Shown: positions 1-6,509, counted from the stretch's first letter. The stretch: 10,789 nt of DNA from a virus (IMGVR_UViG_3300027974_000025); one strand, 5' to 3'. Translations and numbers: made by a program. Notes: a model not told the origin generated them from the letters alone.

Positions 1-819
1 TACAAGGATTCAGGAGACGTAAGTCAGTATTTAGGAGTTTATATTCCTATTCTACGTCCTTATTGCTTAATGAGATATTTCCAGGACAATCCTGATATGG
101 TCACCAAAGCAGTGTTTTACTGTGACTGTGACGTAATCTTTACAGATAAATTTGATGTTGACAAGTTTAAAGATGATGATGTAAACTACTTGTCTGATAC
201 AAACAGCTATATCAATGCTTCATATTTTGATAGTAAATTAAGAGATGTCTTATTAGATAAGGTGGAAGAATACCAAACTAGAGATGTCTTAGCTGAGCTT
301 ACAAGCTTAGTGGGTATAACAAGAGAGATAGCTGAAGCTAACAATGATCACTCAGGAGGAGCTCAATATTTCCTTAAGAACATAGACGCTAACTTCTGGA
401 AGAAGGTGATGAATGATTGTGTACTTATTCGTACATATCTTCAGAACATAAACAAAGAGTTCTTTAAAGATGAGAACGCAGGGTTCCAAAGCTGGTGTGC
501 AGATATGTGGGCTGTGTTATGGAACATTTGGCTTAGAGAACAAGAAGCAAAGAACATTCCTGAAATGGAATTCTGTTGGTCTTCAGATCCTATAGAGAAG
601 CTTGATAGAACAACTATATTACATAACGCAGGTATTACAGGACAAAGCAGTATGGGATATCCTGCTTTCTATAAAGGAGCATATCACACTGGTAAAGATC
701 CTTTTCTAGATACACACGTACTAAAAGTGCTTAGTGATGAGACTTCTAAAAAATATGCCACTTATTACTACACTAGACAACTAACAGAAATAAAAAATAA
801 ATATAACCTTAACTATTAA
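1..819 (+). CDS. GT-A fold glycosyltransferase, 5'-truncated, with motifs resembling GT95/GT96 (HPAT/SERGT1-like) protein O-glycosyltransferases
   Basis: The frame is open from base 1 (YKDSGDVSQYLGVYIPILRPYCL precedes the tracked Met at 70), so the true start lies outside the window. DxD motif in VFYCDCDVIF after a hydrophobic strand. YIPILRPY, SWCADMWAV and ILHNAG resemble remembered GT95/96 segments. Confidence 0.7.
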   Translation, partial: YKDSGDVSQYLGVYIPILRPYCLMRYFQDNPDMVTKAVFYCDCDVIFTDKFDVDKFKDDDVNYLSDTNSYINASYFDSKLRDVLLDKVEEYQTRDVLAELTSLVGITREIAEANNDHSGGAQYFLKNIDANFWKKVMNDCVLIRTYLQNINKEFFKDENAGFQSWCADMWAVLWNIWLREQEAKNIPEMEFCWSSDPIEKLDRTTILHNAGITGQSSMGYPAFYKGAYHTGKDPFLDTHVLKVLSDETSKKYATYYYTRQLTEIKNKYNLNY

Positions 820-836
820 CCTAATTAAACAAAATT

Positions 837-1340
837 ATGGGAAGCAATAAAAATTTAAAAGCTTATGTTCGCTACGATGGTAGTGGCAGAGTAGTTCCAG
901 GTAGTTTAATACTACGTAGAAACAAACCAAAAGTGGGTAACTTTCAGCAAGTACAGGGCTATGAATGTAATAGCGGTGGTACATCTTATCGAGTTGTAGC
1001 AACTGCTTCAGGTGCTGTATCAAGTGTTATCACTTACAGATCTGGTGTTGACAACAGTACACAAACTGTAAATTTAGTTGGTACTAACTTATTAGTGGCT
1101 ACTATTTGTGCTGTAACTGGTTCTGTGTCTGCTACAAATGCTGTTGGAACTACAACAGTTATTACAGCAGGAGCTGGTTGTTCATGTTCTGCTTCAGATC
1201 CTGCAGTGAGCTTTAGTAATACAACTACTACCACTACATCATCTACTAGTACAACAACCACTACATCATCTACTAGTACAACAACTACAACAACAACTAG
1301 ACCTGTTACTACTACAACAACAACAACTAGTGGTGGATAA
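837..1340 (+). CDS. Putative virion/surface protein: N-terminal module, beta-rich Cys-containing domain, Thr/Ser mucin-like tail
   Basis: A-rich leader then ATG; ends in tandem TAA TAA. aa 7-39 align without gaps to aa 10-42 of the 3198 ORF. aa 45-128 are V/T/S/A/G-rich, with Cys44, 91, 115 and 117. aa 129-165 are almost all Thr/Ser. No signal peptide. Confidence 0.75.
   Translation: MGSNKNLKAYVRYDGSGRVVPGSLILRRNKPKVGNFQQVQGYECNSGGTSYRVVATASGAVSSVITYRSGVDNSTQTVNLVGTNLLVATICAVTGSVSATNAVGTTTVITAGAGCSCSASDPAVSFSNTTTTTTSSTSTTTTTSSTSTTTTTTTRPVTTTTTTTSGG
1221..1330 (+). repeat. Coding tandem repeat: two perfect 27-bp units plus ACA/ACT trinucleotide runs
   Basis: ACCACTACATCATCTACTAGTACAACA at 1230-1256 and 1257-1283 (each encodes TTTSSTSTT). 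ACTACAACAACAACTAG at 1284-1300 recurs at 1311-1330 with one extra ACA. Confidence 0.95.
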
Positions 1341-1355
1341 TAAAACCAATATATA

Positions 1356-1772
1356 ATGGCACTTAAATCACTATTTCCTGATGAGATGATGAAATCAGGA
1401 GAATTAAATTTGGAAACAATAGCTGGGAAGCTTTCTTTCTTTTATGAGCAATTACATCTATTACATTGGCAAACTACATCATTTGCTGAGCATGAAGCTT
1501 TAGGTAAACTGTATGATAAGGTGGGAGATTTACAAGATGAGATTGTAGAAAAAATTATGGGCTATGCAGGCAAAAGAGTTAAAGCATTTAAAATTGATGC
1601 TTTGAAAGATTATGCTTCAGGTATGTCTAATAAAGTGGTAAAAGACCTAGTTTCTTTTGCAAAAGATCTTGAAGAGTTTGGAGAAGAAAACAACATGCCT
1701 GATATTGAAAATGTAGCTCAAAGCTTGTCTGGAGAAGCTGCTCAAACATTGTATCGTTTAAGTTTGTCTTAA
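1356..1772 (+). CDS. Dps/ferritin-like four-helix bundle protein (phage type)
   Basis: LHLLHWQTTSFAEHEALGKLYDKVGDLQDEIVE carries the Dps pattern HW...H...D-x3-E (His37, Trp38, His46, Asp61, Glu65). 138 aa with helical periodicity. Confidence 0.8.
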   Translation: MALKSLFPDEMMKSGELNLETIAGKLSFFYEQLHLLHWQTTSFAEHEALGKLYDKVGDLQDEIVEKIMGYAGKRVKAFKIDALKDYASGMSNKVVKDLVSFAKDLEEFGEENNMPDIENVAQSLSGEAAQTLYRLSLS

Positions 1773-2065
1773 TGCAAATAAATAAGAAATTCTTTCCTGA
1801 GGTGATGCAAGATAATGAAATAGCTTATTTTGCACACCTTGAGGGAGTTATATCATCTGTAGACGAACTGTCTACACTTGAAATAACTAAGAATCCACAT
1901 TCGTATCACTTTAGACTAGCACCTTCATTGCCTATGTACAATGACATGCTATTGCAGGAGATATTGAAGTTACATAATATGTTTAAGATTAGACTAAACC
2001 TATCTAAAAGTATCAAAAGTTCAGCAACTATAACGTTTGAAATAAATTTGGAAGATACGCAATAA
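1772..2065 (+). CDS. Hypothetical protein
   Basis: TAATG overlap with the upstream gene; 97 aa; no recognised motif. Confidence 0.75.
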   Translation: MQINKKFFPEVMQDNEIAYFAHLEGVISSVDELSTLEITKNPHSYHFRLAPSLPMYNDMLLQEILKLHNMFKIRLNLSKSIKSSATITFEINLEDTQ

Positions 2066-2078
2066 ATGCATATCTTTG
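2047..2078 (+). promoter_or_regulatory. Bacteroidota primary-sigma promoter (-33/-7 type)
   Basis: TTTG at 2047-2050, a 20-nt spacer, then TATCTTTG at 2071-2078, matching TTTG-N(19-21)-TAnnTTTG. The -7 box lies in the largest intergenic gap, 24 nt upstream of the ATG at 2103. Confidence 0.8.
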
Positions 2079-2102
2079 TGACTAAACCAAAAAAACAATT
2101 AT

Positions 2103-2381
2103 ATGTCAGAGATTATCAATTTTGAAGAAGTTCAACAAGAACCTCAAACTCCTAAGTTTGATCCAACTAAAAAGTACACATGGGAAAAAGATACCCAGTT
2201 TGTATTAGATGGTGGACAATTTGGAATGTTATTGAACGCACTACGTGCAGTTATTAATACAAAGGAAGCACAAACTATTCTATTAGCTAAACAAGCAGGA
2301 GATGTTCTTGAAGAGGCATTGGCTGCTGCAGTTGAAGTTGGTATAGTAGTAGAGGTTCCTGAAAATAAAGCTAGTTTATAA
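2103..2381 (+). CDS. Hypothetical acidic protein
   Basis: A-rich leader; 92 aa, Glu-rich, helical C-terminal half; first gene after the promoter. Confidence 0.8.
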   Translation: MSEIINFEEVQQEPQTPKFDPTKKYTWEKDTQFVLDGGQFGMLLNALRAVINTKEAQTILLAKQAGDVLEEALAAAVEVGIVVEVPENKASL

Positions 2382-2530
2382 TGGCAAAAGAAATGATTAA
2401 ACGTAAAGATGGCTCTGTTTCACAGCGTGGTCTTTGGGACAATATTAGAGCTGCTAAAGGATCTGGAAAGAAGCCTACAGCTGCTATGTTAAAACAAGAG
2501 AAGAAAATAAAAGCTAAAACTAAAAAATAA
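2381..2530 (+). CDS. Small basic phage protein, 49 aa (not in the ORF track)
   Basis: ATG at 2381 overlaps the upstream TAA, and its TAA at 2528-2530 overlaps the next ATG. Translation: MAKEMIKRKDGSVSQRGLWDNIRAAKGSGKKPTAAMLKQEKKIKAKTKK. It fills the 2382-2529 gap exactly. Confidence 0.9.
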   Translation: MAKEMIKRKDGSVSQRGLWDNIRAAKGSGKKPTAAMLKQEKKIKAKTKK

Positions 2531-2874
2531 TGGCAACTGTAAAAAAAGATAGAATGGGTAGTCTTTCAGGAATGAAAGCTTCTGATAAGCGTGTAGGTCC
2601 TGTTGACCCTCAAGGTGCTTGGACTAAAGTTCAAGAAGCTACCTTAGCAGGTGCTAAAGGCAAAGCTAAGTTAACTATGGATAAAGAACTTGGTGCTACT
2701 AAGATGGCAAAGAATGGACGTTCTGAAAAGCAATTTGGTCTTGATAAGAAGCAAGCAGCTACAAAAGAAGTTAATCCAGCAAGTTTTAGAAAAGCAGCAT
2801 TAAAGCGTGAATCTGAATTAATAGAGAAGCGTAGTGGTGAAATGGCTCCTAAGTTAAAATCTAAAAAGAAATAA
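2530..2874 (+). CDS. Lys-rich basic hypothetical protein
   Basis: TAATG coupling; K/A/G/M-rich; contains KMAKNG and KRVGPVDPQ. Confidence 0.8.
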   Translation: MATVKKDRMGSLSGMKASDKRVGPVDPQGAWTKVQEATLAGAKGKAKLTMDKELGATKMAKNGRSEKQFGLDKKQAATKEVNPASFRKAALKRESELIEKRSGEMAPKLKSKKK

Positions 2875-2875
2875 C

Positions 2876-3196
2876 ATGGCAACAATTCAAAAACCTAAGA
2901 AAGCTGCTCCTAAAATGGTACCAGGTGAAATGACTGGTAAAATGTACAAGAAGTCTGAAATAGATGAGATTGTTAGAAAACAAGCTGCTGAATTAGACAA
3001 GTCTGGTGTATTTGGTAAAGCTGCTATGGCTAAGAAGAAAGCTCCTAAAGCTAAAGATGGTAAATGGATTCAAAAAGCTGTTAACCCTAAACATAAAGGA
3101 TATTGTACACCAATGACCAAAGCTACATGTACTCCTAAGCGTAAAGCTTTAGCTAAGACATTTAAAGCAATGGGCAAAGCTCGTAAAAGTAAATAA
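2876..3196 (+). CDS. Lys-rich basic hypothetical protein
   Basis: One-base spacing to neighbours; KAKDG followed by KWIQKAVNPKHKGYCTPMTKATCTPKRKALAKTFKAM. Confidence 0.8.
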   Translation: MATIQKPKKAAPKMVPGEMTGKMYKKSEIDEIVRKQAAELDKSGVFGKAAMAKKKAPKAKDGKWIQKAVNPKHKGYCTPMTKATCTPKRKALAKTFKAMGKARKSK

Positions 3197-3197
3197 T

Positions 3198-4178
3198 ATG
3201 GCAACAACAAACCCAAATATCCCTTTAAAGCCTTATGCAAGGTTTAACAGAAATGGAGATATAGTTCCAGGAAGCCTTGGTTTATTTAGAGGTGCTCCCA
3301 CTGTTGGTATCTGGAAAGAGATGCAACCTATAGAGTATTTTAATAAAACTACTAAAAGTTATAGTGGAGTGATTAATGCCAAATATCCAAATGCATTATT
3401 AGCTAATAATATTGCTTATAGTTTAGTAAGATTTCTTGATACTTTAGGTGCTGATGCATACAATACTGTTTTGAATTCTACAGTTTGTTCAGATGATGTT
3501 AATGCTTCTGAGTTTGCTAATATATTTAACATAGGTCAAAATCCTCCAGCATTAAATAACTATCTTGGACCATTCATGGGTGGTGGTCTTGCTGGATATC
3601 CTCATACAGGTATATTAGGAGCACAAGCTTGGCAAAGTCACACTACATCAAATAATAATGCAAATGGACCATTATTGTTAATTAACATGCCTCATATAGG
3701 AATTACACAACAAGCTGATCTTGTTGTAGCTAATGATAATGTAGGTAGAATGTTAAGAAGAGGTAAGAGTTCTGCTACAAGTGATAATACATGTGGAGCT
3801 GTTGCTACAGCTATTGCTGATGCAATTACATTAAATGGTGTTGCACCAGTGGCTACAAATGCTCCTTTTGTAAACAATTATCAAAGATATCAACTTGCAT
3901 TAATTGTTTATGGCTCTTATGCTTATTATAATGCTCACACATATTCAGAGAATATGATTCAAGCTACAGAACTTATAAGAGTTGCAAGTTATAACATCTT
4001 ACATAATACAATCATTCCTGCATTAGGATCTGTAAACAATTTATATTTATTTAGTGGTACATTTATTAATGCTGATGATGGTTATTCTGCATTTATTAAT
4101 TTTAATTCATTGGAAGTGAGAACTGGTTCAACTTGGACATCTCTTACAACAAACTTTTCAAATTTTATAAATGGCTAG
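3198..4178 (+). CDS. LCIB-family (theta-type, beta-CA fold) carbonic anhydrase homologue fused to an N-terminal module
   Basis: Family motifs in the right order: YPNAL; NTVLNSTVCSDD (Cys97, Asp99); GPFMGGGLAGYPHTG...SH; LLLINMPHIGI (His166); VGRMLRRG; CGAV (Cys199); LYLFSGTFIN. This is the Cys/His/Cys zinc triad plus Asp and Arg of LCIB/C proteins. Confidence 0.85.
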   Translation: MATTNPNIPLKPYARFNRNGDIVPGSLGLFRGAPTVGIWKEMQPIEYFNKTTKSYSGVINAKYPNALLANNIAYSLVRFLDTLGADAYNTVLNSTVCSDDVNASEFANIFNIGQNPPALNNYLGPFMGGGLAGYPHTGILGAQAWQSHTTSNNNANGPLLLINMPHIGITQQADLVVANDNVGRMLRRGKSSATSDNTCGAVATAIADAITLNGVAPVATNAPFVNNYQRYQLALIVYGSYAYYNAHTYSENMIQATELIRVASYNILHNTIIPALGSVNNLYLFSGTFINADDGYSAFINFNSLEVRTGSTWTSLTTNFSNFING

Positions 4179-4590
4179 TATTAAGAAACCTGGTCCCTAT
4201 AATCCACAGAAAGCTTCTGCTTATGTAGGTAAAGGAGTTCTCAGAAATGGGGACACTCTAACTTCTATCAAAGGTTCTATCACTCCTGTTCCTAATGGTC
4301 ATCTAATTAAAAAAGATGGCACATCATTAAAGAATGGTGGTAAGACAAAAGCTATTGTTAAAGCTGGTGGTCAAACACATAAAGTATTTAAGAAGAAAGT
4401 TGATAAGGGTATAGGTGATAAAGGAGACATAGTTGTAGATCATACAGCTGGTCCTTCTGCAGGTAAATGGGACAAGATTAACCTCACTGAAAAGTCTAAA
4501 GCTAAAACTGTTAAACAAGGTGTTGCTTCTGTTAAGAAATGGCATAGAGAGAACCCTAACTATGGTAAAAAGCCATTAAAAAAGAAGTGA
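4171..4590 (+). CDS. Lys/Gly-rich basic hypothetical protein
   Basis: 8-nt overlap with the upstream gene; several K-x-G motifs; a possibly folded C-terminal part (GDIVVDH...KWDKINLT...KKWHRENP). Confidence 0.8.
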   Translation: MASIKKPGPYNPQKASAYVGKGVLRNGDTLTSIKGSITPVPNGHLIKKDGTSLKNGGKTKAIVKAGGQTHKVFKKKVDKGIGDKGDIVVDHTAGPSAGKWDKINLTEKSKAKTVKQGVASVKKWHRENPNYGKKPLKKK

Positions 4591-5015
4591 TGGACATTAA
4601 AGAATTTGATATGGATAAGTACATCTTACTAATTGGTAAGAATGCTACTGACATATTCAAATACTATAAGGTTAAAGAAATGCATGGGCTAAATCTAAAA
4701 GATGCCCAAGCAGAAGAGGTTGATAAGACAAAAGGTAACGGAGTGTACATCTATGGGCTTACTAATTATGACCCAGCAGATAAAAAGCTTATAGCTAAAG
4801 ATCCTTATAAGCCCTTTTTATTCTTAAACATGGGAACGTTTAAAAAATACAGTGCTGATGAACAGAAGACAGCAATAATGCATGAAACTATGCACATGGC
4901 TCTTCTTCTATACAAATGGGATGCTGAGAAGAAATCAGAAGAGATAGTCACAATGGCTGAGGATGAGGCCAATAAGATTATTAGAAAACTTAAAGGTATT
5001 AAACTTATAAAGTAA
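4590..5015 (+). CDS. Small HExxH (zincin-like) putative metallopeptidase
   Basis: PFLFLN strand, then AIMHETMHMAL and downstream EEIVTMAE. Start is most likely the ATG at 4590 (TGATG overlap) rather than the GTG at 4587. Confidence 0.6.
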   Translation: MDIKEFDMDKYILLIGKNATDIFKYYKVKEMHGLNLKDAQAEEVDKTKGNGVYIYGLTNYDPADKKLIAKDPYKPFLFLNMGTFKKYSADEQKTAIMHETMHMALLLYKWDAEKKSEEIVTMAEDEANKIIRKLKGIKLIK

Positions 5016-5269
5016 TGGCAAAGACTGAAGCTTGGCAACGTAAGGAAGGTAAGAATCCTTCTGGTGGCCTAAATGCAAAAGGTAGGGCTTCCTACAACAG
5101 AGCTAATCCAGGTAAGCCTGGTCTTAAAGCTCCACAACCTGAGGGAGGTTCTAGAAAGAAATCATTCTGTGCTAGGATGAGTGGTATGAAAAAGAAACTA
5201 ACAAGTTCAAAGACTGCTAATGATCCTAACAGTAGAATTAATAAGTCACTTCGTAAATGGAAATGCTAA
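5015..5269 (+). CDS. Conserved basic phage protein (DUF6321-like, from recollection)
   Basis: AWQRKEGKNPSGGLNAKGRASYN...RKKSFCARM...SRINKSLRKWKC is a pattern I recognise from many aquatic phage genomes. TAATG coupling. Confidence 0.75.
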   Translation: MAKTEAWQRKEGKNPSGGLNAKGRASYNRANPGKPGLKAPQPEGGSRKKSFCARMSGMKKKLTSSKTANDPNSRINKSLRKWKC

Positions 5270-5288
5270 CAATTTAAAATTATAAAAA

Positions 5289-5735
5289 ATGGCAAAGATG
5301 AAAAAGGCTCAATCTGGTGATATGGTATCAAAAATAAAATCAGCTGCTAAAAAAGCAGATTCAACTGTTCGTAAAACAGGCATGAACTTTGACAAGAAAA
5401 GTTTTGATTCATTACCTAAAATGAAAACTAAAGCTAAATCTGGTGGAGAATTTGGTATGTTATCAGTGAAAGCTGGTATTGACAAAAACCCTAATCCTAC
5501 ACAAGCAGATAGAATTGCAGGTGCTAAGGGTATGGCTAAGTCTGGTAAGAAAGTTGCTAAGCAAGCTGCTATTGCAATTGCTATGAAGAAAGAAGGTAAA
5601 GTACCTAAGAAGATGATGAAAGCTGGTGGCACTGTATCTATGCAACTTGGTAGTTATGACAGACAAATTGGTAAAAACTACACTGGTAAAGCTAAGATGG
5701 GTAAATCTGTTGGTAAGTGTAAAAATGGTTGCTAA
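5289..5735 (+). CDS. Lys/Met/Ala/Gly-rich basic protein with repeated K-x-G motifs
   Basis: A-rich leader; seven (K/M)x(K/Q)xG motifs; includes KQAAIAIAM and GMLSVKAGIDKNPNPTQADRIAGA segments; ends KCKNGC. Confidence 0.8.
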   Translation: MAKMKKAQSGDMVSKIKSAAKKADSTVRKTGMNFDKKSFDSLPKMKTKAKSGGEFGMLSVKAGIDKNPNPTQADRIAGAKGMAKSGKKVAKQAAIAIAMKKEGKVPKKMMKAGGTVSMQLGSYDRQIGKNYTGKAKMGKSVGKCKNGC

Positions 5736-5941
5736 TGAAATCAGCTAAGGTGAGTGTTAAACAAGCAAAGTCAGTAAAGCCAATGACTGCAGGTAAAGCT
5801 AAAGGATCAGGTACACCAAGACCTGCACCTAAGGTGGCTCCTCCTAAACCAGTTGATGGTAATTATATGAAGGAAGCTGATACAAAGCTTAGATTGAGAA
5901 GTAAGAATTGGCCTATGAAACAAAAGAGATTATCAAAATAA
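5735..5941 (+). CDS. Lys/Pro-rich basic hypothetical protein
   Basis: Start is most likely the ATG at 5735 (TAATG overlap) rather than the TTG at 5729. The stop lies just before the terminator. Confidence 0.75.
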   Translation: MKSAKVSVKQAKSVKPMTAGKAKGSGTPRPAPKVAPPKPVDGNYMKEADTKLRLRSKNWPMKQKRLSK

Positions 5942-5944
5942 AAG

Positions 5945-5971
5945 AAAAGCCCCAATTAAGGGGCTTTTTTT
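5945..5971. terminator. Bidirectional Rho-independent terminator
   Basis: AAAAGCCCC-AATTAA-GGGGCTTTT inverted repeat (5945-5968). T7 tract at 5965-5971 on +, and an A-rich run upstream giving a T tract on -. It sits in the 34-bp gap between convergent stops. Confidence 0.95.
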
Positions 5972-5975
5972 ATTA

Positions 5976-6509
5976 TTATCTAAGTGCGTTGTAAGTGCTT
6001 AACACTTTAGGAATATAGTTTGAAGTTTTAGATTTGTTGTAACAGTTTTCAGCAAATACACCATCTGCATCCCTTCTATGTATAACAAATCTTTCATCAC
6101 CTACTATTGTTGTATGTACAATGAAGTTGTGACTATCTATGTAGCTTAGTCTAACTTTACTTTGTCTTAATCTAATGCTTCCATCTTTTTCTTCTTGATC
6201 AAAATGAATAAAGTCATTAGTTAAATCTTTAATGTTGTTCCACAGTTCTGGATGTATGATAGTGTCATCGTCATTAAAATAGATGTAACCTTCTGTTACT
6301 AAATCAATTGCTAAATTTCTTTGAGCATTTCCACATACACTACCTGCATCTTTTATACAATAGGCTTCGCATTCAGGAATGCTATCAGGAACAGTGTCTG
6401 AATCAAACACAACAATCCATCTGTAATTTTCTTTAGGTATGTTAATGCTCTCTGCAATTCTATGTAAAAGATGAGGTCTACTACAAGGAGTGATGATGTT
6501 TAAGAACAT
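5976..6509 (-). CDS. Glycosyltransferase, GT2-like (minimal GT-A domain)
   Basis: LNIITPCSRP N-terminal strand, WIVVFD, GNAQRNLAI and YIYFNDDDT are hallmark GT2 motifs. Confidence 0.85.
   Translation of the reverse strand: MFLNIITPCSRPHLLHRIAESINIPKENYRWIVVFDSDTVPDSIPECEAYCIKDAGSVCGNAQRNLAIDLVTEGYIYFNDDDTIIHPELWNNIKDLTNDFIHFDQEEKDGSIRLRQSKVRLSYIDSHNFIVHTTIVGDERFVIHRRDADGVFAENCYNKSKTSNYIPKVLSTYNALR

Follow-up and report, generated by a model that had tools for sequence, protein, structure and literature searches.

We describe a short protein module, here called the handle, which forms the N-terminus of two otherwise unrelated proteins encoded in a 10,789-nt stretch ("the window") of the viral record IMGVR_UViG_3300027974_000025, and which stands in front of a great variety of other C-terminal partners in uncultured phages. 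From sequence comparison, the segment shared by these two open reading frames (ORF A and ORF B; Table 1) is the core of a basic, predicted beta mini-domain of 40–46 residues that defines a large, unnamed, and phage-restricted family. The conclusion that this is one tag with swappable passengers is well supported by the same comparisons. As to what the tag is for, we lean, if only slightly, towards the view that it fixes its passengers to the virion. Phages are known to combine conserved N-terminal anchors with distal parts that can be exchanged, as in their receptor-binding proteins, and the overall design is to that extent not new; what is new is the identity and size of the handle family, the very small handle itself, its tandem forms, a cassette boundary that can be placed to the base, and a range of passengers that includes a carbonic-anhydrase fold. 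All positions are those of the window, plus strand, unless labeled otherwise.

The handle and its family

The 33-residue cores of the two handles (residues 7–39 of ORF A and 10–42 of ORF B) start no more than 10 residues from the start codon in both proteins, and align without gaps with 15 of 33 residues identical; both are basic, with net charges of +6 and +3, respectively. When the whole proteins are compared by BLASTP, the match extends to 17 identities in 37 residues (46%, with 68% positives, no gaps, and an expect value [E] of 5e-9). A second, weak segment links the two cargoes, that is, the parts behind the handle (27% over 116 residues, E 1e-4); it is rich in Thr, Ser, and Asn, and we read it as compositional likeness. 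The summed fraction of T, S, N, A, and G is 0.62 in ORF A and 0.46 in ORF B, against 0.21–0.43 in 22 neighboring ORFs, and that of D, E, K, and R is 0.09 and 0.10, against 0.18–0.41. The first ~45 residues of the two proteins hold no hydrophobic stretch, the highest 12-residue Kyte–Doolittle mean being ~1.0, by a heuristic that is not a signal-peptide predictor.

The first-pass annotation of this DNA had pictured just such a pair, with an ungapped 15/33 match at the extreme N-termini, unrelated proteins beyond it, cargoes that are rich in T/S/N/A/G and poor in charge unlike their neighbors, and no signal peptide in either. Our translations reproduce both of the strings it quoted, and the rest of the picture stands: past the module, ORF B has an LCIB_C_CA domain, and ORF A a predicted beta-sandwich of no known family with a disordered Thr/Ser tail. 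ORF A and ORF B hold the only copies of the handle in the 58.7-kb record containing the window, which is an IMG/VR contig of about half a genome.

Table 1. Positions of the features discussed, in window coordinates (AF2, AlphaFold2; pLDDT, predicted local distance difference test)
Feature	Position	Strand	Description	Basis
Glycosyltransferase-like gene, 3' part	1..819	+	338 aa in full, directly upstream of ORF A	phrog_4417, E 7.7e-49
ORF A	837..1340	+	167 aa: handle, beta-sandwich cargo, and Thr/Ser tail	ORF list, translation, AF2 model
ORF A handle	837..974	+	Residues 1–46; core 855–953; Cys44 at 966–968	BLASTP, family profile, model
ORF A cargo	975..1220	+	Residues 47–128; Cys-containing predicted beta-sandwich, replaceable cassette	AF2 pLDDT 82–89; drop in DNA similarity
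ORF A tail	1221..1337	+	Residues 129–167; mucin-like Thr/Ser, predicted disordered, probable O-glycosylation acceptor	Translation; pLDDT <50
DUF5856 (Dps/ferritin-like) gene	1356..1772	+	3' flank of the cassette	Pfam E 3.3e-14; conserved among related loci
ORF B	3198..4178	+	326 aa: handle and cargo with LCIB-type beta-carbonic-anhydrase fold	ORF list, Pfam, PtLCIB4 alignment
ORF B handle	3198..3344	+	Residues 1–49; core 3225–3323; divergent subtype without Cys-Cys pair	BLASTP, orthologues
ORF B LCIB_C_CA domain	3414..4121	+	Residues 73–308	Pfam PF18599; PtLCIB4 5b5y

How widely the handle occurs was addressed by two kinds of search. Word-based searches used the first 45–50 residues; they returned 21 full-length orthologues of ORF B, and 381 proteins of 81–323 aa that have the N-terminus of ORF A but not its C-terminus. 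In an exhaustive HMMER search, a nine-sequence profile was compared with 1.84 billion representatives of clusters formed at 50% identity, and it matched 895 protein clusters at E ≤1e-3 (522 at E ≤1e-10). Since each representative stands for a cluster at 50% identity, the 895 matches already imply many different bodies behind one head, and the handle, with ~900 such clusters, is a very common module that had escaped cataloguing.

Its position is almost without exception N-terminal. Among 286 members that were fetched, 283 start the handle within 12 residues of the N-terminus, and in the remaining three the start codon seems to have been called too far upstream. Two handles in tandem are present in 17 of the 286. 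An alignment of 104 modules shows Pro31 and Gly34 to be invariant and Leu7, Ala9, Arg12, Gly17, Ser23, Trp36, and Glu38 to be nearly so. Directly after the module, 221 of the 286 members (77%) carry a Cys-Cys pair, for which ORF A has one Cys and ORF B none. The ORF B subtype of handle is kept in the 21 orthologues and, in a more divergent form, by 78 of 100 viral-metagenome LCIB homologues, including a divergent clade of 315 aa that the profile barely reaches.

The handle was found in 276 IMG/VR loci, in none of 50,697 GenBank phage records, and in one of 185,579 species genomes, where it lies on a 112-kb phage contig with the same capsid protein (97% identity). The ESM Atlas clusters that resemble it are 100% viral. 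No match was obtained in Pfam, PHROGs, NCBIfam, or PDB sequences, catalytic and regulatory domains included, which agrees with the first-pass view that the module belongs to no named family. That annotation had also proposed a profile search as a check, reasoning that many N-terminal hits with varied partners would favor a docking tag and full-length orthologues alone would not; the profile finds hundreds of N-terminal matches with widely varied C-terminal partners.

The handle is confidently predicted to be an independently folding, three-stranded mini beta-domain. In the AF2 model of whole ORF A it has a pLDDT of ~90 and strands at residues 8–13, 25–27, and 35–39; modeled alone from 104 sequences, it has a mean pLDDT of 87 and three short strands at residues 8–13, 25–27, and 36–39. 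The cargo of ORF A is modeled as a beta-sandwich (residues 48–114, pLDDT 82–89) followed by a disordered tail of 39 residues. Against the PDB, the whole ORF A model found no significant fold (best Foldseek E 0.31, best VIA-align Z 4.7), and the structural matches of its cargo are weak and jelly-roll-like (Z ≤4.7). The handle-alone model gave 11 rows at Z ≥2 against 48,161 PDB representatives (best 2.6), in a comparison for which a query of 46 residues has little power. One resemblance, to the fiber N-terminus of cyanophage Pam3 (Z 2.0, root-mean-square deviation 2.2 Å over 35 residues), we treat as a lead only. A structure search of BFVD found only a member of the handle family, from Virus NIOZ-UU157, and one of the ESM Atlas yielded nothing but viral clusters of hypothetical proteins.

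Passengers and the cassette boundary

Handle genes occupy a recurrent slot. The glycosyltransferase-like gene comes first (79 of 81 loci), followed by the handle gene, the DUF5856 gene (76 of 81), and two small conserved ORFs (73 and 61 of 81). When DNA similarity to ~80 related loci is counted in bins of 60 nt, 57–73 loci per bin are similar over the glycosyltransferase and handle; the number falls to 11–18 across 961–1260 and is back by ~1380. An alignment to the complete genome of one relative (G002) breaks off at 968 (codon 44) and is taken up again at 1355, immediately before the first base of the DUF5856 gene. Because similarity is lost where the handle ends and regained with the next gene, the passenger is replaced as a unit between them, and on this sequence evidence the cargo is a replaceable cassette. 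A boundary as sharp as this lends itself well to the study of how exposed domains are exchanged in phages. In an abundant, uncultured lineage of aquatic phages related to crassviruses, the slot that carries the handle is the most variable of all gene slots.

Two complete relatives with terminal repeats (G002 and G004; 111 and 117 kb) each have one handle gene, in the slot of ORF A and with a different cargo; that of G004 is handle and poly-Thr only. Two to four handle genes, usually adjacent, are present in 34 of 80 IMG/VR loci. ORF B is such an extra handle gene, and it is found within ±10 kb of a handle gene in 8 of 81 related loci.

The diversity of the passengers is considerable, ranging from a bare poly-Thr tail through small Cys-rich beta domains and domains of lectin or adhesin type to a fiber chaperone and an LCIB-type carbonic anhydrase. 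Cargoes of at least 25 aa number 279 and fall into ~100 BLAST groups, a figure that includes 81 singletons, some of them pure poly-Thr tails split by the low-complexity filter. Runs of at least five Thr occur in 138 of 286 members, and the shortest members (68–92 aa) consist of handle, Cys-Cys pair, and poly-Thr only. A Pfam scan of 100 representative members recognized Fib_succ_major (four members), LRR_5 of BspA type (two), LCIB_C_CA (two), and Ice_binding, Lcl_C, Laminin_G_3, PQQ_2, and Peptidase_S74 (one each), all of which are extracellular binding or fiber-type domains; no immunoglobulin-like (Ig-like) family was seen among these 100. With ~100 cargo groups behind one handle and swap boundaries at 968 and 1355, the first-pass proposal of one tag onto which passengers are swapped is well supported.

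The Peptidase_S74 member (P0221) lies in the same slot, downstream of a gene of 340 aa, and its PHROG matches are tail-fiber families. S74 domains are self-cleaving intramolecular chaperones of trimeric tail fibers and tailspikes. Pfam finds no such domain in ORF A or ORF B, so that S74 speaks for the family and not for these two. On the short contigs (2.6–3.8 kb) of the divergent members P0170 and P0221, the upstream gene is another handle gene or the 340-aa gene.

The passenger of ORF B is the best characterized by homology. The protein matches Pfam PF18599 (LCIB_C_CA) at E 8.2e-18 and 64.9 bits, against a cut-off of 25, over profile positions 8–222 of 223, and phmmer aligns it with diatom PtLCIB4 (PDB 5b5y) at E 2e-5. 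The zinc-site and Asp/Arg motifs are in register in ORF B and 5b5y (CSDD/CSDE, GGLAGYP/GGLAGFP, H-I-G/H-V-G, RRG/RRG, and CG/CG). The carbonic anhydrase fold claimed in the first-pass annotation is thus confirmed at the level of homology, and we assign the cargo, as a putative enzyme, to the LCIB/theta-type beta-carbonic-anhydrase fold. It has the same domain and motifs as the LCIB and theta-type beta-carbonic anhydrases and differs from them in being fused to a phage handle.

A clade of viral LCIB proteins of ~360 aa (within P0324–P0352) has no handle and other N-termini, and one of these N-termini is weakly like a tail fiber of Synechococcus phage RB11-B (36% over 89 aa, E 2e-3). Judged by such sequences, the LCIB domain itself travels between N-termini, and phages may repeatedly have placed the carbonic-anhydrase fold, as a distal domain, behind handles of different kinds.

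Proposed virion docking and its alternatives

Genes for a large terminase, a portal, and a major capsid protein are present in the record from which the window comes. We call the phage crAss-like on the strength of its portal, which matches gp20 of PhicrAss001 (25% identity over 804 residues, E 3e-36), although its capsid protein has no BLASTP similarity to gp32 of the same phage (E 0.5). PhicrAss001 offers the closest structural precedents. Its head fibers, the trimeric gp21 and the dimeric gp29, insert residues 1–38 and 1–58, respectively, into hexon pockets of two types, to which the major and auxiliary capsid proteins both contribute, and its tail fiber gp22 is docked by residues 1–26 in the THA2–THB tail hub (Bayfield et al. 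2023, PMC10172136). Most crassviruses have no homologues of gp21 and gp29, and the same authors suggested that uncharacterized proteins may serve instead (PMC10172136).

On the model that we favor, the free N-terminal handle would plug into a conserved site once the virion is assembled, and so keep its passenger on the outside of the particle. This site could belong to the capsid, where gp21 and gp29 bind, or to the tail, where gp22 does; within this model we rate the two about evenly. The Cys-Cys pair at the end of the handle, where present, may staple chains together after release, and the Thr tracts would probably be O-glycosylated by the product of the neighboring glycosyltransferase gene. 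In this lineage the slot directly downstream of that gene always contains a handle gene, to which some genomes add one to three more, ORF B being an example.

The likeness to gp21 and gp29 lies in the combination of a short part at the extreme N-terminus, suited to docking, with an unrelated C-terminal domain that would face outwards. The two fibers for two types of pocket may be compared with the two handle subtypes described here, and the gp29 gene is in the lysis gene neighborhood of PhicrAss001, as are the handle genes in their own genomes. Against this, the proteins have no sequence similarity; the handle family adds ~100 types of cargo, tandem forms, the Cys-Cys pair, and poly-Thr tails; and capsid binding, which gp21 and gp29 are known to do, is for the handle a proposal. 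With gp22 and the anchors of receptor-binding proteins, the handle proteins share a conserved N-terminus and exchangeable, adhesin-type C-termini, one member ending in Peptidase_S74. They differ from gp22 in that there is no similarity, the genes of this lineage are not part of a tail-fiber cluster, most of the proteins are of 70–200 aa, and there are tandem forms.

We favor docking on the virion because a conserved, folded N-terminus is joined to a hypervariable C-terminus of adhesin-type, Cys-rich, or glycosylatable character, with no export signal, in the late arm of the genome, and in phages only. Such a build is typical of proteins that contact a conserved component of the phage with their invariant end and the outside world with the other. 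In complete genomes, the handle slot shares a strand with the terminase, portal, and capsid genes; it is the last stretch of their arm and runs convergently to the replication arm. Upstream of the handle genes on the same strand are small ORFs resembling membrane proteins and a Phage_lysozyme gene (E 1e-30). Being on the strand of the head genes and downstream of the lysozyme gene, the handle genes belong to the late, structural and lysis transcription direction. Adhesin- and fiber-type cargoes, Peptidase_S74 among them, and the adjacent glycosyltransferase lend indirect support to an association with the virion. Homologues of the glycosyltransferase are encoded by 77 GenBank phages, and relatives of it adjoin the major tail protein genes in the Firmicutes phages Enterococcus phiFL and Lactobacillus Semele, a place that fits an enzyme modifying virion proteins.

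Several observations weigh against virion docking. By hhalign, the handle profile has no similarity to the N-terminus of gp21 (E 0.2 over 18 columns), to that of gp29 (E 0.3 over five columns), or to residues 1–26 of gp22 (E 0.48, one aligned column), and none of these three chains is among the weak structural matches of the handle model, a low-power query of 46 residues. No cultured phage carries the module. The handle genes lie ~40 kb from the head genes, among genes for small basic proteins and a Dps-like gene, and not among tail genes. Tandem handles are easier to reconcile with a dimer, or with binding to a lattice, than with the base of a trimeric fiber, and it is hard to see what a carbonic anhydrase would do on a particle. 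Finally, the conservation of the handle could be explained by any conserved partner, structural or not.

If the handle is a virion plug, the proteins that bear it are the equivalents of head or tail fibers that the PhicrAss001 structure paper expected and that homology did not find in most crassviruses. Their cargoes would then reveal which domains these phages choose to expose, an enzyme included, and the 45-residue tag would become available for tests of capsid or tail binding. A bolder form of this proposal, which we consider unlikely, makes the handle the universal plug of a natural "phage display" on the capsid lattice of a widespread, aquatic, crAss-like lineage, with passengers exchanged at the tag boundary; those on show would include an active zinc carbonic anhydrase, ice-binding-like domains, lectins, and glycosylated poly-Thr "mini-mucins." Were it correct, an enzyme on the virion surface, for example for the conversion of CO2 and bicarbonate at the surface of the host, would be a new virion function, and the handle would be a ready-made tool for decorating crassvirus particles.

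The first-pass annotation likened the module to decoration-protein anchors such as that of Hoc. T4 Hoc and T5 pb10 are capsid decoration proteins with Ig-like display domains, and Hoc binds by its C-terminal part. To our knowledge, neither is a family with many alternative cargoes. The analogy with our reading of the handle lies in an exposed, non-essential-looking passenger on a small capsid-binding part; the passengers of Hoc and pb10 are Ig-like, and Pfam recognized no Ig-like family in the 100 representative handle members.

Other partners for the handle have to be considered. It could be a folding or oligomerization nucleus, or could bind a target outside the virion such as a polymer of the host surface, in which case its passengers would be free soluble adhesins and enzymes, either released at lysis or intracellular. 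This seems to us quite unlikely. The genes do lie away from the head and tail modules, beside lysis and auxiliary-type genes (Dps-like, basic proteins, PhoH, and the RecA region), but a constant N-terminus before a hypervariable C-terminus is the signature of proteins that stand between a phage part and the environment, and without a signal peptide such proteins could leave the cell only by lysis. While the carbonic-anhydrase-fold cargo resembles an auxiliary metabolic gene, the cargoes also include a tail-fiber chaperone domain. The basic charge of the cores and the tandem handles, which are like tandem binding repeats, would suit a binder of this kind; the extreme N-terminal position seen in nearly all members is what plug-type docking would give.

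Alternatively, the handle could be the recognition element of the adjacent glycosyltransferase, which would dock on it and glycosylate the Thr/Ser-rich passenger, so that its conservation would reflect the enzyme. The enzyme gene, directly upstream, is indeed the tightest neighbor of the handle gene, although this co-occurrence is synteny within one lineage and not an independent association. Both window proteins are Thr/Ser-rich, Thr runs are common in the family, and some members are handle and poly-Thr only, yet half of the family has no Thr run, and neither has the sole handle protein of the complete genome G002, which keeps the enzyme. Moreover, none of the 77 GenBank phages with the enzyme family has the handle, and the enzyme therefore does not need it. 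We judge this explanation very unlikely as an account of the handle, and it is in any case compatible with virion docking. Whether the handle were a glycosyltransferase tag or a module of free proteins, it would still define a new family of substrates or effectors.

It is extremely improbable that the handle is a capsid-targeting propeptide like the targeting sequence of the T4 internal proteins, one that brings passengers destined for ejection into the prohead and is then removed by the prohead protease: it is short, N-terminal, and followed by unrelated cargoes, crassviruses do package cargo proteins (PMC10172136), and a Glu often precedes the Cys-Cys pair, but the module is confidently predicted to fold as a domain and may occur twice in a row, and poly-Thr tails, lectin-type domains, and a fiber chaperone are external-type cargo. 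A cleaved peptide was dropped from consideration since the putative cleavage Glu is not conserved, the residue before the pair being E, Q, K, I, D, or others.

The cultured Bacteroidota phage MA9V-3 of Chryseobacterium (PV245944.1) has the same design, with a shared N-terminal module of ~45 residues, poly-Thr linkers, and differing C-termini. At 3615–6004 of its genome (L100), three adjacent paralogues of 245, 117, and 428 aa have in common a module ending in Cys-Pro, followed by poly-Thr and unrelated C-termini. Upstream location puts them right next to the best match in GenBank to the window glycosyltransferase (34% identity, E 5e-40), with a gene of 785 aa coming after it. A comparison by hhalign (E 0.42) does not support a distant kinship between the MA9V-3 module and the handle, and this module is absent from the genomes studied here. 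No virion proteomics has been reported for MA9V-3 (PMC13120357); as the phage can be cultured, it would allow the design to be put to the test.

Genome context and neighboring genes

The major capsid protein (locus L003, 2829–4379; in the same record, outside the window), downstream of which a candidate auxiliary protein of 321 aa is encoded, has a single relative among GenBank phages, in the Leptolyngbya (cyanobacterium) phage Lbo-JY46, at 26% identity. Among the relatives of this phage it is 94–97% identical, whereas the portal and terminase there reach only 78–86%. A relative of complete length, JBBAJS010000010.1 (L086; 111,986 bp), with a handle gene and a capsid protein that is 97% identical, is part of a metagenome-assembled genome of Sediminibacterium sp. 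This contig is a binned phage genome, and would be either a weak hint at the host or a binning artifact.

For the DUF5856 protein that follows ORF A, there is a further match in PHROGs, to a family that bears the annotation of a starvation-inducible (Dps-like) regulator. Around ORF B and on the same strand (2381–3196, 4171–4590, and 5015–5941), there are seven small and very basic proteins of 49–148 aa with net charges of +12 to +27, which may be DNA-associated or packaged. One of them is a DUF6321 protein (E 4e-20), a domain which in PHROGs forms the C-terminal end of much larger phage proteins.

Between the lysozyme and glycosyltransferase genes (locus L005, 9244–9810; G000, 49244–49810) lies a gene for a charge-poor protein of 189 aa, rich in Thr, Ser, Asn, and Ala. 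It has no handle and no Pfam or PHROG match, and its composition is like that of the handle cargoes. Lastly, a protein of 176 aa of the SPFH/Band 7 family (Pfam E 6.8e-27) is encoded at 5809–6336 of locus L003, also outside the window, between the portal gene and the gene that precedes the capsid protein gene, a location that is unusual for this family of membrane scaffolds.

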